Below are positions 2,738-14,438 of a stretch of 64,000 bases of DNA, in pieces. Numbering within the stretch: the first letter of the stretch is position 1; each line of letters opens with the position of its first letter. A model generated the notes under the pieces. The model searched no databases and had not been told where the DNA came from. It saw only the letters and a list, made by a program, of their open reading frames with translations. The stretch is taken from the IMG/VR virus record IMGVR_UViG_3300032315_000748. One strand, given 5' to 3'. The DNA is from a virus. A program made the position numbers and the translations under genes.

Positions 2738-4426
2738 ATGTCTGGAACTTATAAGTCTAAAGAAATTTACAGTGAAGGAGTATTGAGAGGGTCTCAAAGT
2801 CAAATTAAAAAATCTAGTGGAGCATCAGCATTAACACCAGATGCGGCAGCACAACTTGGACCCAAAGCAGTAGAATTACAAAGAAAAAAAGCAAAACAAG
2901 TAGATGTTCCTAATTTTGTGAAGACTGTAAGAAAAGAAGAAGTTGAACTTGGTGAAGCAAAAGTAGAAAGTGGGAAGTCTCAAGAAGAAAAAGAAATTAT
3001 TAGAAATAAAAGAGCTGGAATTGATAAAGACCCAATGGCTTTTCCGGGCAGAAAAATGCAAAATATCTATAGAATGGAATTACATATGGATACGAGAGGA
3101 GAAAAAAAAGAAAGAGGTAAAAAAGTAAATGAAAAGATTGATGTAGGTGCTGATGCTGGTACAACAATCAGTGATTTCGTTCATTCAAAGAGTGCTACAT
3201 TCAAAGGTGATAGTAAGAAGCAAAGAATTAAGAGAGCACTTGGTGCCTATTACGCAGCACAAAAAGAAGAAACAGAAAACATTTATAATTATGTAATTGA
3301 AACTTTGGTTGATAGTGAATTCGCAGAAGATTATGAGACTGCTGAAAATATGTTTGAACATATGAGTAGTGAATTTGTAGCAGTCATTCTTGAAGAGTAT
3401 ATTGAAGAAAAGGCAAGAGGAACCAGACCAAAAAGAACAGTTCACGCATATGATGTTGACGAGACTTTGGTTGGACACGGTAAGAAAGGAAAAACAAACG
3501 TGAAAGTTCACGTAAATGATGCATCCGGTAAAAGAGTTAAGAGTTTAAGCAATCAAGAATTCAATACTCATAAACTTGATAAGGGACATTCTTATGATTT
3601 TAGTGAATTCAGAAGTGCTAAAAAGTTTGGAGAAACTTCAAGCGCAAACAAAAAAGTAATTAAAGATGTAAAAAGAAAGCAGGCAAGAGGACAAAATGTT
3701 CATATCATCACTGCTCGTGCGAAGTTTGATAATCCATCAGAGTTTCAAGGACATTTGAAGAAGAAAGGTGTTGATGTTCCTTTGAATAAAATTCATTATA
3801 CTGGTGGAATGAAAGGTAGTGATATTGGAAAGAAAAAAGTAGATGTAGCAAAGGGGGTTGCAAAGCAGAGTGGTGCCAAGGAGATCCATATGTATGATGA
3901 TGCCGCAAAGGTTCATAAGGCATTTGAGGGGGAAAAGAAAAATCAACCAACTTCCACAAAAATTAAAACTCATTTGGCAAAACCAAATGCATCTGGCGAA
4001 ACACAACTTCGTTCTTATCAAGGAACAAAAGGCGGAAGAACTAGTGATAATCCATCATCAACTACTAAACAAACACAACGTAGAAGAAACAAAGCAAGAA
4101 AGAATATGGGAGAAGAAGTATTTTCTTATCTAAATATAGAAGAAGGAAAAGTCAAAGGAGAAATTATGTCACATTCCTACCAAGAAATCAAAGAAGATTT
4201 TGATCTTAGAGATAAACTCTTTATCAATTTCTCTGGGACTTCAAAAGCAAAAAATGAATTAAAAGAAGAAACTGAAATGACTCCATACGAACAATGGAAG
4301 TCTTTTGTTAAAGAAAATGAAGTTGAAGAAATTCAAGAGTCTGTTGAAATTGAAACAGAACTAAACGAAGAGTTAGTACCTATGAATTCCTATCAAGCTT
4401 GGAAATCATATCTAGAATCAATTTGA
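2738..4426 (+). CDS. Modular Glu/Lys-rich probable head-internal protein containing a HAD-like phosphatase domain
   Basis: DVDETL (DxDxT), IITAR and YDD HAD motifs; helical module shared with the next ORF; late promoter. Confidence 0.55.
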   Translation: MSGTYKSKEIYSEGVLRGSQSQIKKSSGASALTPDAAAQLGPKAVELQRKKAKQVDVPNFVKTVRKEEVELGEAKVESGKSQEEKEIIRNKRAGIDKDPMAFPGRKMQNIYRMELHMDTRGEKKERGKKVNEKIDVGADAGTTISDFVHSKSATFKGDSKKQRIKRALGAYYAAQKEETENIYNYVIETLVDSEFAEDYETAENMFEHMSSEFVAVILEEYIEEKARGTRPKRTVHAYDVDETLVGHGKKGKTNVKVHVNDASGKRVKSLSNQEFNTHKLDKGHSYDFSEFRSAKKFGETSSANKKVIKDVKRKQARGQNVHIITARAKFDNPSEFQGHLKKKGVDVPLNKIHYTGGMKGSDIGKKKVDVAKGVAKQSGAKEIHMYDDAAKVHKAFEGEKKNQPTSTKIKTHLAKPNASGETQLRSYQGTKGGRTSDNPSSTTKQTQRRRNKARKNMGEEVFSYLNIEEGKVKGEIMSHSYQEIKEDFDLRDKLFINFSGTSKAKNELKEETEMTPYEQWKSFVKENEVEEIQESVEIETELNEELVPMNSYQAWKSYLESI

Positions 4427-4433
4427 GATTGAT

Positions 4434-4470
4434 AAAGGTCTTTCTAGTCCTAGAAAGACCTTTTATTTTT
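4434..4470 (+). terminator. Rho-independent terminator
   Basis: AAAGGTCTTTCTAG / CTAGAAAGACCTTT inverted repeat then T run. Confidence 0.8.
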
Positions 4471-4521
4471 TATAATAAATAAATAACTAAATAATAATAA
4501 GAAAAAGTATTTTTCAGTCAT

Positions 4522-5925
4522 ATGGAAACTTGGAACACTGTCAAAACTCTTAAAGATATCGCAGGGGCATATCAATCAATCTACGAAGCAAAGAAGCAAG
4601 TAGATCAGGATGAAGATGGTGATAATGATTTTGCCGATAATATGATTGCGAGAATGGTTGCTTCTGGTATGTCTAGAGAAGAAGCAATTAAAAAAGTAAA
4701 GAATAAGGAATACAATAAAGAAGAGTATTCCTTGGACGAGGAAACCAAAGCAGAAAAAGAAGCAAGAATAGCAGCAAGACGAGCAAGAGTTAAGCAAATG
4801 GAAGATGAAGGTGCAGTAATGACATCTTCTCGTAGAGCAAGTGAAGTAGCAAAGCAAAGAAAAGAAGCCAAGAAAGCGGAGGCACTTGAAAGAGCAGGGT
4901 CATCTGTCCTCAATCAAATGCGTGGAGCATCTGGAAGGGTCTCCGAGAGGCCTATGGGATCAGAAGCACCCAAGGCAAAGGAGAAGGCACCAGAAGCAAC
5001 CAGAAGACTAAATCCGAACCTTAGAAAGGACAATCTTGGATCTGCTGCTGACCGAGTTCTCAAATCAATGAAAAAAGAAGAATTGGAACTTTGGGTAAAT
5101 GAACTCATTGAAGAAGGTTATGACCTAAGTGAATATACTTGGGATGAGATGGCAGAGATTTATCTCGATGAAGCAACAAGAATGGGAAAGGAACTTGGTA
5201 AGGAAGGTGAGATTGCGACCCGTAAGGAACTTGCGGCACGTTCTAATGCTCACCAACGTTCTGGTAGTATAGATAAGACCATTGCGGCGGCAGAGAGACG
5301 TGCAGACCGTCCTTACATCAAACCAGTGCGTGATGAAAGTAAATCTGATTATAATAAGAGACTGCAGAAAAGTTCGGACACTATGTCAAAACTTGCAGCA
5401 TCAAGAAGAGGTTCAGTAAGAGACAAACCCCGTGCTGGTCTAAGAGGTTATGGTGCTGACGTAAAAGGTAATGATAAAGAACTGCAAAATTCAAGACGTT
5501 CTGCTATGGCTGCAGGAACTCTAACTCCCAGAGAGAAAAAAATGCTCAACAGAGAAGCATACGAAACTTATGAGTTTGTAGCATCATATCTTTTAGAGAA
5601 TAACTTTGCTGAATCCGTTGAAGATGCAAATGCAATTATCAACAATATGAGTGAGAACTGGTTTGAGAGTATTATGGAAGAAAAGAAACCACTTCCTGTT
5701 GCTAAAATGAAAAGAAAGGAAGAAAAGTTAGACAAAGAACTTGAAAGTGAGATGCCCAAAGTATTAAGAACCGAAATTGATTCTCCCGAAAGAAAAGAAT
5801 TTTTAGGAAAAAATAGAAGATTTGGTGATATGCATGATGTGAGACGTAGTGTTTCTACCAGAGGGGGTAAGAGACCATTACCAATGCCCGAAGTTGGTAG
5901 ATATAAGCCAAAAGACGAAGATTGA
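4522..5925 (+). CDS. Modular Glu/Lys/Arg-rich probable head-internal protein
   Basis: Charged segments separated by EE motifs; YEFVASYLLENNFAESVEDANAIINNMSENWFESIMEE module resembles one in 2738-4426. Confidence 0.5.
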   Translation: METWNTVKTLKDIAGAYQSIYEAKKQVDQDEDGDNDFADNMIARMVASGMSREEAIKKVKNKEYNKEEYSLDEETKAEKEARIAARRARVKQMEDEGAVMTSSRRASEVAKQRKEAKKAEALERAGSSVLNQMRGASGRVSERPMGSEAPKAKEKAPEATRRLNPNLRKDNLGSAADRVLKSMKKEELELWVNELIEEGYDLSEYTWDEMAEIYLDEATRMGKELGKEGEIATRKELAARSNAHQRSGSIDKTIAAAERRADRPYIKPVRDESKSDYNKRLQKSSDTMSKLAASRRGSVRDKPRAGLRGYGADVKGNDKELQNSRRSAMAAGTLTPREKKMLNREAYETYEFVASYLLENNFAESVEDANAIINNMSENWFESIMEEKKPLPVAKMKRKEEKLDKELESEMPKVLRTEIDSPERKEFLGKNRRFGDMHDVRRSVSTRGGKRPLPMPEVGRYKPKDED

Positions 5926-6036: not shown

Positions 6037-6459
6037 ATGAGTTATGATAATCCTTGGTTATATCAAGGAAAGATTTTTGAGACAGAAGATATTGGAGAGC
6101 ACTTTGGATTTATCTACTTAATAGAGTGTGAAGAGAACAGTAGAAAATATCTGGGAAGAAAATACTTCTGGTCTTTTAGGACACCAAAAGGAAAGAAAAG
6201 AAAAGTAAAACAAGAAAGTGATTGGAAGAAATATTATGGGTCTTGTCCAGAACTAAAAGACGATATTAAGATATTAGGTAAAGATAAGTTCAAAAGAAGT
6301 ATTCTGTCTCTTCATAAGACCTTAGGTAAGACAAACTATGAAGAGACAAGATTGTTGTTTTTGAATAATGTTTTGACGGAAGCATTAGAAGATGGGTGTC
6401 CAAGATATTACAACTCAAATATTCTTTCAAGATATTACCGAAAAGATTACTTTAATTGA
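6037..6459 (+). CDS. GIY-YIG-like nuclease-domain protein
   Basis: GFIYLI...KYLGRK and YYGS motifs resembling T4 Seg/GIY-YIG proteins. Confidence 0.65.
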   Translation: MSYDNPWLYQGKIFETEDIGEHFGFIYLIECEENSRKYLGRKYFWSFRTPKGKKRKVKQESDWKKYYGSCPELKDDIKILGKDKFKRSILSLHKTLGKTNYEETRLLFLNNVLTEALEDGCPRYYNSNILSRYYRKDYFN

Positions 6460-6497
6460 CAAATTAATAAATAAGTTATGTGTTAGTAAATATTTCC

Positions 6498-7169
6498 ATG
6501 ACCCTAGATCTTCATAACTTTTTTAAGTATTATGATGATAAGAATCCAAATCACGTAGCAGCAGTTCAATGGTTAGAGGATAATCTACCTGCTGAGTTTA
6601 TGGATGATTCTGAAACAGAGTGGATAGGAATGTTCAGAACAAAACCTCCAACTCCAGCAGTATTGGAGGTTCCTTATTTTAATCAAGTAGACAACTACAG
6701 AGATGCACATAGAACTTGTAATAGTTCATCGTGTGCTATGTGCCTTGCTTTCCTCAAGCCAGGAAGTATCAAAGGTGATGACGAATATGTTAAGAAAGTA
6801 TTTGCGATTGGTGATACGACCGATCATGCGGTTCAAACCAAGGTTCTTGCAGGTTACGGTGTTAAGTCACACTTTAGTTATAATTTGAGTTTTGCTGATA
6901 TTGATAAGAGTCTTGATAGAGGAAAACCAGTTGTTATTGGTATTCTGCACAGGGGTTCTCTTACTTCACCTACTGGTGGTCACATGTGTGTTGTAATCGG
7001 TAAAACACCAGATGGTAAAGGATACTTTGTGAATGATCCTTATGGATCTCTAAATGATAACTATACTGGACCCGTAACAAACGGTAAGAAGACCGTTTAC
7101 ACCAAAGCAGTTCTTAAGCACCGTTGGGCCCCTGGTGGCACAGACGGATGGGGACGTATTTTTGATTGA
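6498..7169 (+). CDS. C39-like cysteine peptidase (putative cell-wall peptidase) with N-terminal domain shared with the lysozyme
   Basis: VPYFNQ...TCNSSSCAM, GGHMCVVIG, VNDPYG = Q-C-H-D papain-like residues. Confidence 0.8.
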   Translation: MTLDLHNFFKYYDDKNPNHVAAVQWLEDNLPAEFMDDSETEWIGMFRTKPPTPAVLEVPYFNQVDNYRDAHRTCNSSSCAMCLAFLKPGSIKGDDEYVKKVFAIGDTTDHAVQTKVLAGYGVKSHFSYNLSFADIDKSLDRGKPVVIGILHRGSLTSPTGGHMCVVIGKTPDGKGYFVNDPYGSLNDNYTGPVTNGKKTVYTKAVLKHRWAPGGTDGWGRIFD

Positions 7170-7187: not shown

Positions 7188-7859
7188 ATGGCAAGAATCG
7201 ATTTACACAACTTCTTCAAGTTTTATGACGAGAAGAATCCTAATCACATCAAAGCAGTTCAGTGGTTAGAAGATAACCTACCTGTCAAGTATCTTGAGGA
7301 TAACATTGATTGGGCGGAGATTTATAGAGGAAAAAAGTCTAGTGCTGCACAAGCATCTACACCAACTGCTAGTGCTCCTGTAACTGGTGGTGATGATATG
7401 CCTATGACTGGTCTAAAACTCATTAAAGAGTTTGAAGGATGTCATCTAAAAGCATATCCAGATCCTCTGTCAGGTGGACTTCCAATCACTATAGGTTGGG
7501 GGACCACTCGTAAGAAGGATGGATCACCATTCCATATGGGTGATACAATCACTCAACAGGAAGCAGATGAGTTATTGATTACTCAATGTAAGAACCAGTT
7601 TCTTCCATCACTTCGTAAAATTCCACACTGGAATGAAATGTCTGATGGTAAAAGAGGTGCATTACTTTCTTTTGCTTATAATCTTGGTGCTGGTTTTTAT
7701 GGCAGTGGTGATTTTAATACTATCACTAAAAGACTGAAGAATAAAGAATGGGACTTAGTTCCCGATGCGCTTTACCTATACAGAAATCCTGGATCTAATG
7801 TAGAAGCAGGACTTGCTCGTAGAAGAAAAGCAGAAGGTGAATCTTGGAAAAAAGGTTAA
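7188..7859 (+). CDS. GH24 lysozyme (endolysin)
   Basis: LIKEFEG...AYPD...TIGWG, ALLSFAYNLG, GLARRRKAE. Confidence 0.93.
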   Translation: MARIDLHNFFKFYDEKNPNHIKAVQWLEDNLPVKYLEDNIDWAEIYRGKKSSAAQASTPTASAPVTGGDDMPMTGLKLIKEFEGCHLKAYPDPLSGGLPITIGWGTTRKKDGSPFHMGDTITQQEADELLITQCKNQFLPSLRKIPHWNEMSDGKRGALLSFAYNLGAGFYGSGDFNTITKRLKNKEWDLVPDALYLYRNPGSNVEAGLARRRKAEGESWKKG

Positions 7860-7877: not shown

Positions 7878-8240
7878 ATGAACAACAAAAAGGAAAATGG
7901 TATGGGGCAACTAATTCGTGTTGTGATTTTGAGTTGGTCTGCCGCACTACTTACCGCAAGTTATGCTGGTATGTTTGCTAAAATGGATCCCACATTCATT
8001 GCTACAGTATTTACTGCATCTGCTGCCACTTTTGGTATTAATACAATGAAGAAAGGTGGAGATGATGACGATGAAAAAAAGGAACAACCACGCAGAGAAG
8101 AATTTGTAGAAGCACCTCCTGAACCACCTGCTTCACTAAAACAACCTGTTTCAACAATTGCTGAAACAACAGTATCTCTTGAAGAAAGAGTTGAAGCATT
8201 AGAAGAAGGACAAGTTCAACCTCGTACAGGTGGAGTATAA
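7878..8240 (+). CDS. Membrane protein, holin candidate
   Basis: Two hydrophobic segments then charged tail; directly after endolysin. Confidence 0.45.
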   Translation: MNNKKENGMGQLIRVVILSWSAALLTASYAGMFAKMDPTFIATVFTASAATFGINTMKKGGDDDDEKKEQPRREEFVEAPPEPPASLKQPVSTIAETTVSLEERVEALEEGQVQPRTGGV

Positions 8241-8652: not shown

Positions 8653-8856
8653 ATGGCACGAGAATGGAACACTCCAGTTCGTGAGTGTTGGAATAAACCC
8701 ATTCACCAAATATTAAAGGCAATAGATAATCATACCCGTCTTCATTTGGAGACGGGTAATTTTTGGCACGAAGAGCAGGCAAATATATTAAGACAATACT
8801 TAAGAGATTTAAAAGACTTTATACATAAAGAAGAAGGTGGACAATACGATGACTGA
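8653..8856 (+). CDS. Hypothetical protein
   Basis: ORF packed in operon. Confidence 0.6.
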   Translation: MAREWNTPVRECWNKPIHQILKAIDNHTRLHLETGNFWHEEQANILRQYLRDLKDFIHKEEGGQYDD

Positions 8857-8959
8857 GTTTCCTTGGGGAGTTTTTATTATTCTTGGTTCTGGTTTAATTT
8901 TTACCTGTTATTGCATTTACTATATACTAAGAATGGCATATTTAGAGGAAAGGGAATGA
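8849..8959 (+). CDS. Small single-TM protein
   Basis: MTEFPWGVFIILGSGLIFTCYCIYYILRMAYLEERE; ATGA overlap with next gene. Confidence 0.55.
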   Translation: MTEFPWGVFIILGSGLIFTCYCIYYILRMAYLEERE

Positions 8960-9180
8960 AAGAACTATCACTAATTCTATCAGCACTCAGTCTAACCGTA
9001 TCTTTAGGTTTAGCAGTTGGTGCTTATATCACATACAAGAAAGCAGAGACAATTATCAATCATCCAGAAGACTTTGTGAATTCTATTGTAGATAAAGTTG
9101 TGGAGGAACAAATCAGTAAAGCATTTGAAAAACTACCTATTCCCAAACTAAATACTGGGAAGTTTCAGTTACCATTCTGA
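8956..9180 (+). CDS. N-terminally anchored membrane protein
   Basis: MKELSLILSALSLTVSLGLAVGAYITY; true start is probably 8956, not 8863. Confidence 0.6.
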   Translation: MKELSLILSALSLTVSLGLAVGAYITYKKAETIINHPEDFVNSIVDKVVEEQISKAFEKLPIPKLNTGKFQLPF

Positions 9181-9599
9181 TGTCATTAAAGGATCCTTAC
9201 ATTTACAGAATTAAACAAATTTTAAAAGTAGTTGATGGTGATACGATTGACGCATCAATAGATTTAGGGTTTGATATTAGTTTAGAAAAAAGAATACGTC
9301 TTGCTGCTGTTGATACTCCAGAGAGTCGCACAGCAGACGCAAACGAAAAGAAATATGGTCTTGAATCAAAAGAATGGTTGAAGCATAAAGTAGAAAATGC
9401 TAAGAACATTTTAATCAAAACCGAACTCCCCGATAGCACTGAGAAGTATGGTAGAATCATTGGTCATTTATTCATTAACGACCAAGAGACATCACTGAAC
9501 GATCAAATGGTTGTTGAGGGATATGCCTGGCCGTACAAGGGAGACACAAAGAAGAAAAACTTTGCTGAGTTAGATGCCAAACGTACCAGAAATTCCTGA
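9180..9599 (+). CDS. Thermonuclease (SNase-like) nuclease
   Basis: KVVDGDTI, RIRLAAVDTPE, EKYGRIIG, GYAW. Confidence 0.9.
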   Translation: MSLKDPYIYRIKQILKVVDGDTIDASIDLGFDISLEKRIRLAAVDTPESRTADANEKKYGLESKEWLKHKVENAKNILIKTELPDSTEKYGRIIGHLFINDQETSLNDQMVVEGYAWPYKGDTKKKNFAELDAKRTRNS

Positions 9600-10308
9600 T
9601 ATAAAAACAAATAATATAGAAATACCAAAGGTGGAGGTTCCAGTTATTCGTAATCTGGAACCTCCACCTATTCTTGTACCAATCAATAGGAAATTACCAA
9701 TACCCGTTGTTGATGTTCCTATGGATGGTATTCCAAGTTATGAACCGATTGATGCTCCTACAACTGAACAGTTTAGGAAAATGATAAATGCTCAACAGGA
9801 ACCAAAGAAAGAAGAACAAGTACAAGACAAACCCAGAGCACTTCCAGATCTTAAGGGGATTACTGAAGCATTAAAACAAGTACCTCAAGTACCTCAAGCA
9901 TCTCAACCACAAGAACAAGTTGCTCCACCAGTACCAAAAATAGATGCTCCAACTATTACTGTCCCGTATATTGGGGCAATTCCAGTTCCATCCACCGAAA
10001 CTGTTGTATTATCTGGCACCACTGCTACTGCTAGTGTCGCTGCGGCTCTTATTGGTAAATCTATGGTGGAATGGTTGGTAGGAAAAATGAAACCTATTAT
10101 TAATCAGATCTTTATTAGGGGGAAACAATTGTTGAACCGAGATCTGACGCCTTACGAGACTCAGTTACTTTTTGCTTTGGAACTGGATAAGAAGACTTTG
10201 AAACTCTTGAAGAAGGAACAAAAGGCTGAGAAATTACGCCAGAAGCAGGTTTTTGTTGAATCACAACAACATCCGCACATATCTTTGCGTAAGGAGAAGA
10301 AGGATTAA
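9574..10308 (+). CDS. Pro-rich protein with C-terminal membrane segment
   Basis: Long Pro/Gln-rich N-terminal region, hydrophobic TTATASVAAALIG segment, basic tail. Confidence 0.6.
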   Translation: MPNVPEIPDIKTNNIEIPKVEVPVIRNLEPPPILVPINRKLPIPVVDVPMDGIPSYEPIDAPTTEQFRKMINAQQEPKKEEQVQDKPRALPDLKGITEALKQVPQVPQASQPQEQVAPPVPKIDAPTITVPYIGAIPVPSTETVVLSGTTATASVAAALIGKSMVEWLVGKMKPIINQIFIRGKQLLNRDLTPYETQLLFALELDKKTLKLLKKEQKAEKLRQKQVFVESQQHPHISLRKEKKD

Positions 10309-10819
10309 AGAAAATCCCACCTTTCATTGCTTCACCACATTTGAGTAATCTTACAAGTTCAAAATCTAATCGTGCTTTATCAGTTTCTGCTCTTTGTCTA
10401 GCAGTCCAAGTATCAGCAGCAGTCTTACATCTTTCTTGTAATCCACCATCTAATGGAAATGAAAGAGTTGCTGATAGTCCAAAGTTATTTGCAAAACTAT
10501 CTTTCTGACCCGTTCTTTCTAATCCATTAATACCTGTTGTCATATCATTATCAATATTTGCATATTCTTCAAAAGGTCTTGAACCACTTTTAGATGTGGT
10601 CATAAAGGGAGTAAGATTAAAGGTTGGACCCTGACAACTTACTCCACCACCGTATGAGTTGGTCACGTATGGACCCTGTAGCACCTGTACTGCCTGGTTT
10701 GTTACACTTCCTGTTGATGTTGCCTGTGGATTTGCAATCGCAGTTACAGGGGTATCCCCCTCTGCATACGCAGGGAGAACAAAGACACTTAGGGCAAGGA
10801 TTACTTTGAGACATTTCAT
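10115..10819 (-). CDS. Secreted protein with TolC-like beta-hairpin/helix signature
   Basis: Sec signal (AYA/E); PTFNLTPF...NNFGLSATLSFPLDGG then long helix; 4 Cys in mature part. Confidence 0.6.
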   Translation of the reverse strand: MKCLKVILALSVFVLPAYAEGDTPVTAIANPQATSTGSVTNQAVQVLQGPYVTNSYGGGVSCQGPTFNLTPFMTTSKSGSRPFEEYANIDNDMTTGINGLERTGQKDSFANNFGLSATLSFPLDGGLQERCKTAADTWTARQRAETDKARLDFELVRLLKCGEAMKGGIFFNPSSPYAKICADVVVIQQKPASGVISQPFVPSSRVSKSSYPVPKQKVTESRKASDLGSTIVSP

Positions 10820-10820
10820 C

Positions 10821-11180
10821 TTACTGGGTGAATACTGACATTGAATCCGTAACAGATTGAATTGTCGTGGTTCTTTCTACTGTTGTATCTTTAATCAATC
10901 CAGGACCCATATAAGTTTCTGAAAACTGAAATGGTTGTCCTTGATTCACAATACTATACTTTGTTCCAAGAGTTGGAGTTCCTGGAATATTAATATTTGT
11001 TCCCGTAACTGTATAACTAAATCCAGTTTGGAAATCTTGTTGTCTAATTATTTCATTTACTGTTGTGGTGGATTCAGTATGAGAAGTTACAGTACCACTA
11101 GTAAAGTTTGGTGTGACTGGCGCTGCTAGGGATGGTAGGGAAAACCCTAGCAGACAAATGCCTGCTAGGATATATTTCAT
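10821..11180 (-). CDS. Secreted Thr/Ser-rich beta protein (paralog of 11177-11671)
   Basis: Signal peptide (SLA/A); SYTVTGTNI, GQPFQFSET, C-terminal SMSVFTQ. Confidence 0.65.
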   Translation of the reverse strand: MKYILAGICLLGFSLPSLAAPVTPNFTSGTVTSHTESTTTVNEIIRQQDFQTGFSYTVTGTNINIPGTPTLGTKYSIVNQGQPFQFSETYMGPGLIKDTTVERTTTIQSVTDSMSVFTQ

Positions 11181-11671
11181 TTGAATACACTCAGTTCTGA
11201 ACTGCGTTGACCGATTGCAGTGGTTCCAGCACCACCACCAGTAACTGTAAGAGCACCAGTAGAGGTATCAATCGTACCTGCAAGAGTACCTTTCTCACCT
11301 GCTAGTTGTGTGGTGTTCTTACCATACAGAGTTGGTGATGCAATTGCACCATTAGAAACTGTCTGTGATGTAACAGTACTGTCTCCAACAGTTAGTGACT
11401 CTGTAAATGAGAATGCCTGACCATCATTGTTAATAGCATAAGTGCCAGCACTCATTGTTGCTGCTGCACTTGATGTGCCACCAGTCAATCCACCAAGTGC
11501 CGAGACACCGATGTTAGTTCCACCAACTGCGTAGGAACTACCAATTCTTTCTGTTTGTACCGCTGCACCCTGTACTGTTAATTGAACGGAATCAGTGATT
11601 CTTGATGTAATTTCACCTGCAAAAACAGGAGTAGTTAAGAATAACGAAAAGAGTAGTGTTAGTCTTTTCAT
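11177..11671 (-). CDS. Secreted Gly/Thr/Ser-rich beta protein
   Basis: Signal peptide (VFA/G); SYAVGGTNI, GQAFSFTES, C-terminal ELSVFK. Confidence 0.65.
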   Translation of the reverse strand: MKRLTLLFSLFLTTPVFAGEITSRITDSVQLTVQGAAVQTERIGSSYAVGGTNIGVSALGGLTGGTSSAAATMSAGTYAINNDGQAFSFTESLTVGDSTVTSQTVSNGAIASPTLYGKNTTQLAGEKGTLAGTIDTSTGALTVTGGGAGTTAIGQRSSELSVFK

Positions 11672-11727
11672 TGTTCTGTTAAATTGGATACTATTATTTA
11701 TTAATAGAATTTTTCAAATTGAACCAC

Positions 11728-11756
11728 TTGACAAATCATAAATAATCACTTATTAT
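11728..11756 (+). promoter_or_regulatory. Sigma70-like promoter for rlpA
   Basis: TTGACA-17-TATTAT. Confidence 0.7.
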
Positions 11757-11761
11757 GAGGA

Positions 11762-11876
11762 AACCCAAACACATTGGGTCATATCATGAGATTTTGATGT
11801 GAAACTTAGAGCCGTGGGCAATGCCTCCCGAGAGGGTTGGAACTTCTCCTTTGCCTATACGGATGTCGAATTCTAT
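11762..11876 (+). ncRNA. Putative structured 5' leader RNA of rlpA
   Basis: Three successive stems, including CCGUGGGCAA/UUGCCUAUACGG enclosing a CCC-GAGA-GGG GNRA hairpin. Confidence 0.5.
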
Positions 11877-11883
11877 TAAACTA

Positions 11884-12255
11884 ATGCTTTTCAAAAAAAC
11901 AATTCAAACCCTTTCGGTCATTGCTCTGAGTCTTGGTGCTCTTGCTCCAAGTCCTGCTCAAGCATTGACCTGTTCTTATGCCTCACATTATGGAATTGGT
12001 GATGGTTACGATGGTCAAAGAACTGCTAATGGTGAACGGTTTAATGCCTATGGTAACTCAGCCGCACATCGTGATCTTCCATTTGGCACTAGATTGAGAG
12101 TAACTAATGAATCAAATGGAAAATCTGTTGTTATACGGATCAATGATCGCGGTCCATATGTAAGTGGTAGGAGTCTTGATCTTTCTTATGGTGCTTTCTC
12201 AACGATTGCATCACCAAGTAGGGGAGAGATTAGGGTTTGTTATTCTAGACTGTAA
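11884..12255 (+). CDS. rlpA: RlpA-like lytic transglycosylase (DPBB) with signal peptide
   Basis: ASHYG, TANGERF, AAHRDLPFGT, INDRGP, LDLS. Confidence 0.92.
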   Translation: MLFKKTIQTLSVIALSLGALAPSPAQALTCSYASHYGIGDGYDGQRTANGERFNAYGNSAAHRDLPFGTRLRVTNESNGKSVVIRINDRGPYVSGRSLDLSYGAFSTIASPSRGEIRVCYSRL

Positions 12256-12289: not shown

Positions 12290-12718
12290 ATGTTTAATTT
12301 TAATTTTGGAAATAAAAAACCAGATATTAAACAATATGCAATCATAGGAATTATCTTAAGTTCTGTGATTGCAACTCTTACACAATGTACTGGAATAAAA
12401 GAAACATCTTTATGGGATGTATTTGATGAAGTTCAACGTAAGTTCTTTCCTCAGACGATGTTGAATGATTTCATCATCAAAGATCCCGAAAAATTGGATC
12501 GTAGGGTGAAGAGAGATGTTGATTTGGCAATTGCTGAGTATGAAAGATTGACAGGAGATGATGGAAAGATTAGGATGCCTAAACCACGATATTCAGAGAA
12601 ACCACCAGACGGGTCTTATGCCCAATCAGTTTTGGGTGGTGAAATGAGATTGTGTGCTCCTTGGGTAAACGATTGCCCCTTGACAGACCAGAATAATGCG
12701 GATGTAACTCAGCGGTAG
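12290..12718 (+). CDS. Hypothetical membrane-anchored protein
   Basis: N-terminal TM segment; 3' end runs into tRNA-Gly. Confidence 0.55.
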   Translation: MFNFNFGNKKPDIKQYAIIGIILSSVIATLTQCTGIKETSLWDVFDEVQRKFFPQTMLNDFIIKDPEKLDRRVKRDVDLAIAEYERLTGDDGKIRMPKPRYSEKPPDGSYAQSVLGGEMRLCAPWVNDCPLTDQNNADVTQR

Positions 12719-12769
12719 AGTTCCTGCTTGCCAAGTAGATTGTCGTCGGTTCGAATCCGATCATCCGCT
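12698..12769 (+). tRNA. tRNA-Gly(GCC)
   Basis: GCGGATG/CATCCGC acceptor, anticodon loop TTGCCAA, GGTTCGAATCC T arm, U73. Confidence 0.92.
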
Positions 12770-12826
12770 TTCCCAGAAACACTGGGATATAAATAAACTT
12801 CGTAGTTATAAAACTTAACAAACTTT

Positions 12827-14320
12827 ATGAAATTTTTCAATCAACTGATGCTTGCACCTGTTGCACTTGGAATGATTGCTCCTACTGTTGCGAATGCTGC
12901 AGACCTTAATATTGCTGGAGTCAATCAATACAGTTCCTCAGAGCAGGTCACAAGTATCAGTCAATTCTCCGATGTTCAACCTACGGATTGGGCATATGGA
13001 GCACTGAGCAATCTTGTGGAACGTTATGGTTGCGTTGCTGGTTATCCTAATGGCACCTTTGGTGGTGGTAAGGCACTGACCCGTTTTGAAGCAGCAGCAC
13101 TTCTTAACTCCTGCTTGGATCGTGTTACTGAAGTCACCGATGAACTTCGTCGTCTGATGGCAGAATTCAAATCCGAACTTGCTGTTCTCAAAGGTCGTGT
13201 AAGTGGTCTTGAAGCAAAAGTGGGCAAACTTGAGGCAACTCAGTTCTCTACCACAACCAAACTGAAAGGTGAAGCATCCTTCATTCTTGGTGGAGTTCCT
13301 GGTTATACTACGAATACTGGCACTGTTGCTGGTAGCACTGCGTTTAACTATGACCTTCGTCTGAACCTGGATACTTCATTCACTGGTAAGGATTTGCTTC
13401 GCACCCGTCTGCGTTCTGGTAACTTCTCCAGTCAACCTTTCGGTTCTTCTTCGTCACTGTTCAAACTTGACAAGGCAGAATCTTCACAAGGTACTGGTAC
13501 TTCCAGCAATGTTTGGTTGGACCGTCTTTACTATCAGTTCCCTGTCAGCAAGAGTGTAACTTTGACTGCTGGTCCTCTGGTTCGTAACACTGAGATGGCA
13601 TGGGTTCCTTCTGTTTATAAGTCGGATGTTCTTGACTTCTTTCAACTTGGTGGTGCTTCTGGTGTCTATAACAAGGCAACTGGTGCTGGTTTCGGTGCTC
13701 AATATCGTCAACCAGGAACACAAGGTTTTGTTGCTTCTGTGAACTATGTTGCAGAAGATGGTAGCAATACTTCTACTGGTGAGTTTGATGCAACTGGTAA
13801 ACTGAACACTCTGGTACAGATTGGTTACCGTGCTCCTCAATGGGGTCTTGGTTTCGGTTATCGTTATGGTACTGAGGGAACTCGTGTTCGTAACTTTAAT
13901 GCTCTTGGTGGTGGTTCTGGTGCTCTTGCATACGGTCAAGTCTCCAACAGTTACGCATTCAATGGTTACTGGCAACCCAAGAAGAGTGGTATTGTTCCTT
14001 CCGTCAGTGCTGGATATGGTTCTAACACCATTAACGGTAATGCTACTGTACGAGGTGCTACCAACTCTAACTCTTGGTTCGCAGGTCTTCAATGGTCTGA
14101 TGTGTTCGGTAAAGGCAATGCTGCTGGTGTTGCATACGGACAACCTGGAAACGCACAAGGTCTGACTGCAACTGCTTCTATGTTTGAGGCATTCTACAAG
14201 TACCGTGTAAGTGATAATATCAGTATCACTCCTGCCGTGTTCTATGTTTCCAATAATCAGGCAACTCGGAATACTGCTTCCAATTGGGGTGGTGTAATTC
14301 AGACAACTTTCCGTTTCTGA
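12827..14320 (+). CDS. Cyanobacterial SLH-domain porin (SomA/OprB-like)
   Basis: Signal peptide, FSDVQPTDWAY SLH, TRFEAAALL, coiled coil, FSTTTKLKGE, beta-barrel ending TTFRF. Confidence 0.93.
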   Translation: MKFFNQLMLAPVALGMIAPTVANAADLNIAGVNQYSSSEQVTSISQFSDVQPTDWAYGALSNLVERYGCVAGYPNGTFGGGKALTRFEAAALLNSCLDRVTEVTDELRRLMAEFKSELAVLKGRVSGLEAKVGKLEATQFSTTTKLKGEASFILGGVPGYTTNTGTVAGSTAFNYDLRLNLDTSFTGKDLLRTRLRSGNFSSQPFGSSSSLFKLDKAESSQGTGTSSNVWLDRLYYQFPVSKSVTLTAGPLVRNTEMAWVPSVYKSDVLDFFQLGGASGVYNKATGAGFGAQYRQPGTQGFVASVNYVAEDGSNTSTGEFDATGKLNTLVQIGYRAPQWGLGFGYRYGTEGTRVRNFNALGGGSGALAYGQVSNSYAFNGYWQPKKSGIVPSVSAGYGSNTINGNATVRGATNSNSWFAGLQWSDVFGKGNAAGVAYGQPGNAQGLTATASMFEAFYKYRVSDNISITPAVFYVSNNQATRNTASNWGGVIQTTFRF

Positions 14321-14366
14321 TAGACTACTCATAAACTGATAAACTTTGCCTCTTCGGAGGCATTAC

Positions 14367-14438
14367 TGCGGAGTGGGCAAGTGGTATGCCATCAGACTCA
14401 TAATCTGAAGATCGTAGGTTCAATTCCTACCTCCGCCA
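14367..14438 (+). tRNA. tRNA-Met(CAT), initiator-like 1:72 mismatch
   Basis: TGCGGAG/CTCCGCC-A; anticodon arm TCAGA-CTCATAA-TCTGA; GGTTCAATTCC. Confidence 0.88.

Follow-up and report, generated by a model that had tools for sequence, protein, structure and literature searches.

A conserved late-type module of predicted exported proteins in cyanophages and its possible role in breaching the host envelope at lysis

Picocyanobacteria account for a large share of ocean photosynthesis, and lysis by phages is a main route by which their carbon is released. In T7 the holin gp17.5 is followed, just past gp18, by the spanins gp18.5/18.7. To our knowledge, the marine T4-like and T7-like cyanophages are without an assigned gene for a holin, a spanin or any other lysis-completion factor. 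It has been reported that P-SSP7 is without T7 genes 3.5, 17.5 and 18.5, and that hypothetical open reading frames (ORFs) lie at the homologous positions (Sullivan 2005, PMC1079782). Here, we analysed a 64,000-nucleotide (nt) stretch of viral DNA (IMG/VR record IMGVR_UViG_3300032315_000748, the whole of which is referred to as the window) and, within it, a trio of minus-strand genes, A, B and C, with two plus-strand partners: a proline-rich protein with one transmembrane (TM) segment, designated ProTM, and a DUF6450 (PF20048) protein. According to sequence matches, the window is part of a T4-like cyanomyovirus whose nearest isolates are S-H38, DSL-LC02/03 and S-CRM01, and metagenome contigs of up to 196 kb carry proteins identical to those of the window. 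It is safe to state that these genes belong to a conserved, cyanophage-specific module of late type, with three proteins predicted to be exported through Sec, a predicted inner-membrane anchor and a predicted two-TM protein, and that the module is neither a part of the virion nor a TolC or curli system. The trio and its partners are read as a new late envelope module, described so far merely as hypotheticals. We propose, with a probability of about 0.4, that the module acts at lysis as a substitute for spanins, in the final lysis step.

Conserved layout and predicted properties of the module

We annotated 80 C-encoding IMG/VR loci by iterative hidden Markov model (HMM) searches seeded with the window proteins. 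The counts of gene order and ProTM position refer to the 66 loci with non-identical C; individual loci are given L numbers. The order A-B-C was kept in all 45 loci with at least 1 kb upstream. ProTM abuts or overlaps the 3' end of C in 46/59 loci (35 convergent and 11 co-directional) and was found somewhere downstream of C in 57/59. In Syn9, gp164 (PHROG 570) converges on gp165 and aligns with the marine form of ProTM, and the layout in Syn30 is the same; thus, the marine T4-like phages share this layout. The DUF6450 gene can share an operon with A, lying right upstream of it (L009, L020, L074, L076 and L088); elsewhere it overlaps ProTM or directly follows a lysozyme/peptidase pair, as it does in the window. 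It abuts the lysozyme or the peptidase gene in 21 loci, the window included, and two freshwater relatives (L074 and L076) have a contiguous lysozyme-peptidase-DUF6450-A-B-C operon. DUF6450 was found in 358 isolate records, all of cyanophages, and was 1-5 kb from the trio in every case among the matches listed. In the cyanopodoviruses 9515-10a and P-GSP1, the order is ProTM-DUF6450-B-C, between the tail-fibre gene and the small terminase, so that judged by gene position this group fills the holin/spanin slot of T7. It should be noted that B is unannotated in 9515-10a, and that the deposited "gp165" coding sequence is over-extended across B. In marine T4-like cyanophages the module lies amid replication genes, beside hsp20, and DUF6450 lies beside regA. 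The association of the trio with the Pro-rich anchor and DUF6450 in T4-like and T7-like cyanophages, and in rare host islands, is a strong conserved synteny that supports the idea of a multi-component machine in the host envelope, which the original prediction had put forward from the window sequence.

In tblastn searches, C matched 462 phage records, B 399 and A, the most divergent of the trio, 81; all of these matches were to phages of Synechococcus or Prochlorococcus or to uncultured marine virus. The T7-like cyanopodoviruses with C are P-GSP1, 9515-10a, SS120-1 and P-SCSP1c. Judging from these matches, the module is present in nearly all T4-like and in some T7-like phages of marine and freshwater picocyanobacteria. 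B belongs to DUF6322 (PF19847; 67.6 bits against the Pfam HMM, with a cut-off of 30.6). A gave no direct match to PF19847, and its look-alike clusters in the ESM Atlas are 99-100% DUF6322. As was predicted originally, A and B proved to be paralogues by sequence comparison (BLASTP E 2e-6; hhalign 98.1%, E 7.9e-14), the hhalign region comprising the signal peptide, the first long strand and a "SYxVxGxNI...GxAFxFxE" head; beyond its B-like part, A has a C-terminal extension rich in Gly, Ala and Thr that ends in ELSVFK. No named function for A, C or ProTM was found in Pfam, NCBIfam or PHROGs. A profile of the C alignment gave no match to PDB sequences at E<=10, and a deep profile search of 1.84 billion representatives gave 414 clusters, of which the 150 listed all matched the C family strongly and none led to a named family. 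Likewise, a word-index search found 1570 relatives of ProTM, and the 120 listed were all unnamed and had no Pfam domain. The surmise that these genes are widespread cyanophage hypotheticals agrees with the searchable literature, in which we found no functional description of them; they are catalogued as hypotheticals, DUFs and PHROGs. Searches for DUF6322, DUF6450, PF24653 and PF20048 found nothing, a search for cyanophage holins and spanins found no cyanophage lysis study, and gp165-167 are unmentioned in the supplements of Sullivan 2010.

The overlap of A and B is ATGA and the start of C lies 1 nt past the stop of B, which makes co-transcription and translational coupling of A-B-C plausible; no minus-strand terminator was found within the trio in the window sequence. 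All three N-termini have K/R followed by a hydrophobic core of 10-13 residues (Kyte-Doolittle (KD) peaks of 1.5-2.0) and a small-x-small site, with predicted cleavage at VFA|G in A, SLA|A in B and AYA|E in C. In alignments of the homologues of all three proteins, the N-terminal ~20 residues are variable yet hydrophobic, whereas the stretch that directly follows the predicted cleavage site ranks with the best-conserved parts of the protein. A variable hydrophobic N-terminus before a conserved mature start is the signature of a cleaved signal peptide. Thus, the three minus-strand ORFs and their N-terminal architecture are as originally described, and point to Sec-type signal peptides on A, B and C, with cleavage inferred. 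No lipobox (L-x-[GAS]-C) was found in A, B or C of the window or in the alignments of their homologues.

Two peculiarities of these reading frames should be mentioned. The convergent overlap of C and ProTM in the window is 194 nt long (10115-10308) so that the Lys/Glu-rich end of ProTM and the variable Ser/Pro tail of C are encoded on opposite strands of the same DNA; in the related loci, convergent overlaps span 190-320 nt, and co-directional ones just ~30 nt. It may be that one of these tails is just read-through and not under selection. Furthermore, in L049-L059, L061-L063 and L021 (the podovirus 9515-10a), there is no ATG, GTG or TTG within 14-40 codons of the mature N-terminus of C, and the C frame is open for 87-146 codons back into B (compare positions 10817-10823 of the window). 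In the lineages without a canonical C start, the stop codon of B invariably shares nucleotides with an ATA in the frame of C (CAATAG or CAATAA). The sole upstream start of C in L049-type phages is an ATG formed from the conserved Gly-Trp codons of B, which would give a basic leader of ~68 residues. Reinitiation at a non-canonical codon, a very long n-region of the signal peptide and a B-to-C frameshift are all possible explanations.

We also searched for late-promoter boxes of the T4 type (TAAATA within [ACT]TAAATA), counting each distinct upstream sequence once; these sequences are related, and hence the following counts are not independent events. The box was found upstream of A in 37/58 sequences, of DUF6450 in 26/59, and of the SNase gene that precedes and overlaps ProTM in 33/37; upstream of B, C and ProTM, the counts were 0/65, 0/70 and 1/61, respectively, and the frequency at random positions was 0.9%. 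The position of the box is conserved over freshwater and marine clades, and the box upstream of A was not found in Syn9 or Syn30. With its predicted promoter, A-B-C has the appearance of a late-type operon. In the window as a whole, 17 ORFs have an [ACT]TAAATA box 23-43 nt before the start (for example, those at 2738, 4522, 9180, 12290, 12827, 14463, 27487 and 57738), among them the SNase, the porin, Dps and two large proteins at 2738-5925; these 17 sites likely mark a late regulon. A near-consensus promoter of the sigma-70 type, facing rlpA, stands back-to-back with the late box of the trio. With these two promoter types, the divergent rlpA unit and the trio may be expressed at different times.

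ProTM consists of an acidic Pro-rich N-part, a weak TM segment rich in Ala, Thr and Gly (residues 143-161) and a basic C-tail. Conserved "hydrophobic-Pro" repeats and a Y-P-x-I-[DN]-VPTQEEF motif are followed by a spacer that is K/E-rich and Pro-rich. The net charge is -5 in the N-part and +9 in the C-tail, from which an N-out/C-in topology is predicted, and in the marine forms the N-part has four conserved cysteines, which suggests that it is periplasmic. In the DUF6450 protein, a hydrophobic peak at ~12-33 passes the KD scan; a second segment at ~38-56 (PTFIATVFTASAATFGINT) was read from the sequence and is below the threshold of that scan. The protein has a charged (acidic and basic) C-tail, and its gene begins 19 nt past the lysozyme stop. 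By this architecture and by its adjacency to the putative endolysin, the DUF6450 protein can be classed as holin-like, with hole formation as a putative activity. Another membrane protein, Syn9 gp163 (L001:6867-7502, PHROG 605), lies between ProTM and DUF6450 in marine myoviruses; it has 211 residues, an N-terminal TM segment and a glycine-zipper-like hydrophobic region at the C-terminus, and the module may include it as an additional membrane protein. In the window, we recognised no counterpart of gp163.

The AlphaFold2 (AF2) model of B, built from a 37-sequence alignment, has a predicted local distance difference test score (pLDDT) of 75.7 and a predicted template modelling score (pTM) of 0.33. 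In this model, strands 28-51 and 94-118, of ~24 residues each, are paired as a long ribbon, and residues 55-91 form a small head. The ribbon is polar and Thr-rich, with the invariant F26 and F117 at its far end. Structure searches with B (Foldseek against PDB and BFVD, VIA wide, ESM Atlas) gave matches to its own family or non-significant ones, the best having a Foldseek E of 0.015 and a VIA Z of 4.2. The top non-significant neighbours in Foldseek and VIA are exclusively long-hairpin protomers of rings or barrels: collar and tail proteins of phi29, Andhra and P68, anthrax PA, iota Ib, lysenin, aerolysin, FliF and SpoIIIAG. We take this as a lead, not as evidence, that B may oligomerise.

For C (38 sequences), the AF2 model has hairpin strands at 66-78 and 108-120 and a 40-residue helix at 127-166. 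C had been said to bear the signature of an outer-membrane beta-hairpin. The strands of the model and the alternating pattern of strand 115-123, in which hydrophobic residues (I/L, A, I, I/F, L) alternate with invariant S, T and S across the 38 homologues, agree with that description; the mean pLDDT of 56 speaks against leaning on it. Strand 67-73 is partly amphipathic, and the loop between the strands (79-105) is indel-rich and the most variable part of the core in the alignment. Four cysteines are invariant (C62, C131, C161 and C181), and the protein ends in a variable Ser/Pro tail. Although hardly any variation is seen in the first ~30 residues of the mature protein (TAIANPQATSSGSVTNQAVQVLQGPY), the model has them disordered, a pattern that suggests an interface. 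The wide VIA search with C returned generic coiled-coil matches alone (Z<=4.5).

Possible roles at the host envelope

The proposal that the module completes lysis is drawn from its position in the T7 slot, the lysozyme-peptidase-DUF6450-A-B-C operons, the late boxes, the components predicted for all layers of the envelope, the periplasmic cysteines and the lack of a recognisable spanin. The predicted locations of the components cover every envelope layer. Under this proposal, A, B and C would be exported by Sec late in infection. In the periplasm, B would assemble by way of its long beta ribbon into a ring or tube, joined by A in phages that have this paralogue. C, also as an oligomer, would place its amphipathic hairpin in the outer membrane, with the variable loop outside and the disulfide-stabilised helix in the periplasm. 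ProTM would reside in the inner membrane, its basic tail in the cytoplasm and its Pro-rich N-part crossing the peptidoglycan to the exported proteins. The holin-like DUF6450 protein and a murein hydrolase would open the wall first, and the envelope-spanning assembly would then disrupt the outer membrane, as spanins do in other phages of Gram-negative hosts. An outer-membrane-breaching device in place of spanins was one of the options of the original prediction; the T7 lysis slot, the freshwater operon and the late boxes lend it circumstantial support. The hallmarks of outer- and inner-membrane spanins are missing from the module. In keeping with the earlier remark that no Rz/Rz1 pair is recognisable, no Rz/Rz1-like pair or lipoprotein was recognised in the module.

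Several observations weigh against a role in lysis. In marine T4-like cyanophages there is no recognised endolysin near the module, and the GH24 lysozyme was found in just 69 Synechococcus phage records. The module bears no likeness to known spanins, having no lipobox and a ProTM topology opposite to that of an inner-membrane spanin (i-spanin), and the model of B resembles a ring or pore protomer and not a fusogenic coiled coil. The model of C is of low confidence, and the fold matches for B and C are all non-significant. Finally, there are the copies of the module in host genomes. Among 185,579 species genomes we found seven matches, most of which are mis-binned phage contigs; PF19847 was found in five of 301 genomes sampled from the host order. 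In three metagenome-assembled genomes of freshwater Synechococcaceae (L010, L011 and L012), A-B-C lies beside genes for NAD kinase, a CYTH-like protein and a bestrophin-like protein. A convergent ProTM was seen in L010 and L012, and L011 (contig G001) ends before ProTM. The G+C content of these islands is 56-60%, compared to 67% in the flanks, and the dN/dS values are 0.07-0.16 for B, C and ProTM and 0.13-0.35 for A. No holin-like gene or lysozyme was found on the available sequence of the host islands, and all three contigs end within ~300 bp past the last module gene (ProTM in L010 and L012, C in L011). Thus, the four-gene core is apparently kept by cells without a holin-like gene or lysozyme; retention under purifying selection with no lysis genes in view suggests a core that is not intrinsically lytic. 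Together with the lack of a nearby endolysin in the marine myoviruses, the host copies fit a constructive or protective role in the envelope, such as exclusion.

This leads to the rival explanation that survives best, although we consider it unlikely: the assembly would remodel the envelope without lysis, altering or plugging it so that adsorption or injection by other phages is blocked or progeny do not stick to debris, and hosts would keep the core as a defence. Apart from the purifying selection on host A-B-C-ProTM with no lysis genes nearby, the presumed surface loop of C (79-105), with its indels, is the most variable part of the core, the exported proteins would act at the layer where incoming phages arrive, and the island in the window also has a porin of host type. 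However, exclusion genes are typically early, and these carry late boxes; T4-like and T7-like cyanophages are expected to differ in receptors, yet they share the module; and the podovirus position, along with synteny with the lysozyme and the holin-like gene, favours lysis.

Less probable still is a secretion channel or surface fibre of the curli, pilus or TolC kind, with A and B as the subunits that polymerise and C as an outer-membrane pore for A/B or other cargo. The ribbon of the B model, whose best non-significant neighbours are ring and pore protomers, and the amphipathic hairpin and long helix of C would suit such a device; host homologues of C match OEP weakly (E 0.003-0.008), and a host homologue of A, which ends in ...LTAF, weakly matches PF24653 Phage_OMP (E 0.002). 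These OEP and Phage_OMP matches are under the curated cut-offs, however, and curli repeats, CsgG/E/F, an usher or chaperone and an energy source such as an ATPase are all absent from the module. There is no evident cargo, and a fibre would be of no obvious benefit late in the lytic cycle. Two specific candidates were rejected. For chaperone-usher pilins, the sole match was DUF2574, with 13.9 bits over the signal peptide. For membership in Phage_OMP, the host A homologue alone matches, at 18.6 bits compared to a cut-off of 27; window A, Syn9 gp167 and Syn30 "OMP1" gave no match to PF24653, even at E<=10 or E<=1.

It is highly improbable that these are outer-membrane proteins for nutrient uptake, that is, auxiliary metabolic, porin-like genes of host type that raise uptake in infection. 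The trio does lie 1.2 kb from a Som-type iron-uptake porin, and near Dps and RlpA, all three with late boxes; nevertheless, the porin neighbourhood is clade-local (10/80 loci), the invariant link is to ProTM and DUF6450 and not to transport genes, and, in contrast to true host-derived metabolic genes, the trio is nearly without a host counterpart. That ordinary virion or assembly proteins were mis-read as secreted is hardly credible, despite the late-type promoter and the weak resemblance of the long B hairpin to podovirus lower-collar and tail-tube proteins, given that three conserved Sec-type signal peptides and invariant cysteines imply export while virions assemble in the cytoplasm, that the genes are common to myoviruses and podoviruses, whose virion parts otherwise differ, and that host cells keep them without virion genes.

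Returning to the proposed role in lysis, we tentatively entertain a stronger version of it, namely that the module might represent a third outer-membrane-breaching class, neither spanin nor disruptin. Such a class would combine a Sec-exported beta-ribbon ring of B (with or without A), a disulfide-bonded C with hairpin and coiled coil in the outer membrane, an N-out Pro-rich anchor that ties both to the inner membrane, and a DUF6450 holin trigger; it would be universal in the T4-like phages of picocyanobacteria, shared with part of the T7-like ones and occasionally domesticated by hosts. The module is a compact set of five families with late boxes, export signals, an inner-membrane anchor, conserved cysteines and a synteny signature that holds across phage families, and no better candidate has so far emerged for breaching the outer envelope of the host at lysis in these phages. 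Should a role in lysis prove wrong, the module would still be a late core set of exported proteins in viruses that rank among the most abundant on Earth, and a copy of it is under purifying selection in some freshwater Synechococcaceae as well.

Neighbouring genes in the window

The coordinates of the module and its neighbours are given in Table 1. The neighbours that were predicted originally (the Pro-rich one-TM protein, two small TM ORFs, the SNase, the lysozyme and peptidase, and RlpA) are all in place.

Table 1. The trio, its partners and neighbouring features in the window
Feature	Position	Strand	Description
SegE-type GIY-YIG homing endonuclease (PF19835)	6037-6459		E 4e-51; directly upstream of the peptidase/lysozyme pair
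Peptidase_C39_2-like cysteine peptidase	6480-7169	plus	
GH24 phage lysozyme (PF00959)	7188-7859	plus	putative endolysin
DUF6450 (PF20048) protein	7878-8240	plus	120 amino acids (aa); PHROG 721/2714/21865; homologue of Syn9 gp161
Small single-TM ORF	8837-8959	plus	40 aa
Small single-TM ORF	8956-9180	plus	74 aa
SNase-family nuclease (PF00565)	9180-9599	plus	no signal peptide; upstream of and overlapping ProTM; own late box at -32
ProTM	9574-10308	plus	244 aa, Pro-rich, predicted bitopic; PHROG 9426; family of Syn9 gp164/PHROG 570
Gene C	10115-10819	minus	234 aa, predicted exported; PHROG 848/1755; homologue of Syn9 gp165
Gene B	10821-11180	minus	119 aa, predicted exported; DUF6322 (PF19847), PHROG 650; homologue of Syn9 gp166
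Gene A	11177-11671	minus	164 aa, beta-rich, predicted exported; PHROG 564; homologue of Syn9 gp167
Late-promoter-like box	11695-11701	minus	ATAAATA; ~30 nt before the start of A
Sigma-70-type promoter	11728-11756	plus	TTGACA-17-TATTAT (11/12)
RlpA-like double-psi beta-barrel (DPBB) protein	11821-12255	plus	
N-terminally anchored protein	12290-12718	plus	142 aa; PHROG 3316
SLH + OprB porin region	12698-14438		intact; NF033921 iron-uptake porin, 301 bits

The SNase is probably a co-transcribed neighbour and not a part of the envelope module. The C39-like peptidase and the GH24 lysozyme have near-identical N-terminal ~50 residues (DLHNFFK.YD.KNPNH..AVQWLEDNLP) and cross-match in iterative searches, and the pair recurs in most of the related loci. 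On the other side of the trio, the PHROG 3316 protein has a hydrophobic N-terminal anchor ending in ...ATLTQC and three cysteines, and 25 related loci have it upstream of A. It may belong to the envelope components as well, with a lipobox that is lipoprotein-like but non-canonical. The porin gene is flanked by tRNA-Gly(GCC) and tRNA-Met(CAT), followed by a Dps/ferritin gene; both the porin and Dps have late-type boxes, and porin homologues occupy the same position in ~10 related loci.

Comparison with described systems

Curli (CsgA/CsgB/CsgG) have in common with the module two small, paralogous, secreted, beta-rich proteins beside a putative outer-membrane component. However, A and B lack the Sx5QxGxGNxAx3Q repeat or any other internal repeats and share a single ribbon-plus-head unit. 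The curli-like arrangement that had been suggested was therefore dropped: the A/B alignments are repeat-free, none of the module proteins matches curlin or CsgG in Pfam, and there is no CsgG-type lipoprotein and no CsgE/F. The TolC label given to C fared no better. As modelled at low confidence, C would resemble TolC/OEP (PF02321) in having an amphipathic beta hairpin and a long periplasmic helix and in needing an oligomer to close a barrel. Nevertheless, C has ~215 mature residues with one hairpin and one long helix, whereas TolC has ~450 residues and two OEP repeats, and the four invariant cysteines and the Ser/Pro tail are features of C and not of TolC. Window C matched no Pfam family at E<=0.1, C is about half the size of one OEP protein, and host homologues scored 16.4 and 17.8 bits against a cut-off of 22, over one partial, helix-only stretch. 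Compared to protomers of pores and rings (anthrax PA, lysenin, aerolysin, the phi29 lower collar and the FliF beta-collar), the B model has a similar ~24-residue ribbon and small head; however, the matches are weak (Foldseek E >= 0.015; VIA Z <= 4.2), and the ribbon of B is made from the N- and C-terminal strands instead of an internal hairpin, and is polar with no obvious lipid-facing tip.

The DUF6450 protein is like class II holins in being small, with two predicted TM segments and a highly charged C-tail, and its gene directly follows the lysozyme gene here and takes the slot of T7 gp17.5 in podoviruses. It differs in that DUF6450 is not homologous to any named holin family and, in marine myoviruses, is beside regA with no endolysin nearby.

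The two-component spanins (lambda Rz/Rz1 and T7 gp18.5/18.7) show no similarity to the module in sequence or fold. The module is without an outer-membrane lipoprotein, and its predicted signal peptides are of the signal peptidase I type, not the lipobox type of an outer-membrane spanin. The TM segment of an i-spanin is N-terminal with an N-in/C-out topology, whereas the sole hydrophobic segment of ProTM is at 143-161 of 244 residues with a predicted N-out topology, and the periplasmic domain of an i-spanin is a coiled coil, whereas the N-part of ProTM is Pro-rich and not a coiled coil. The module has the Pro-rich part on the anchor and the coiled coil on an exported protein, which is the reverse of Rz/Rz1; it has three exported proteins instead of one, and hosts keep it without lysis genes. 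The likeness lies in the general plan: in both cases an inner-membrane-anchored part is combined with one or more exported partners, the genes are adjacent or overlapping, and the periplasmic parts have conserved cysteines. Adjacency of the kind seen in spanin genes and lysis cassettes is found in the abutting of ProTM and C and in the links provided by the window, by L074/L076 and by the podovirus slot. As with spanins, the genes are of late type and stand beside holin-like and endolysin-like genes, in the same slot in T7-like genomes.

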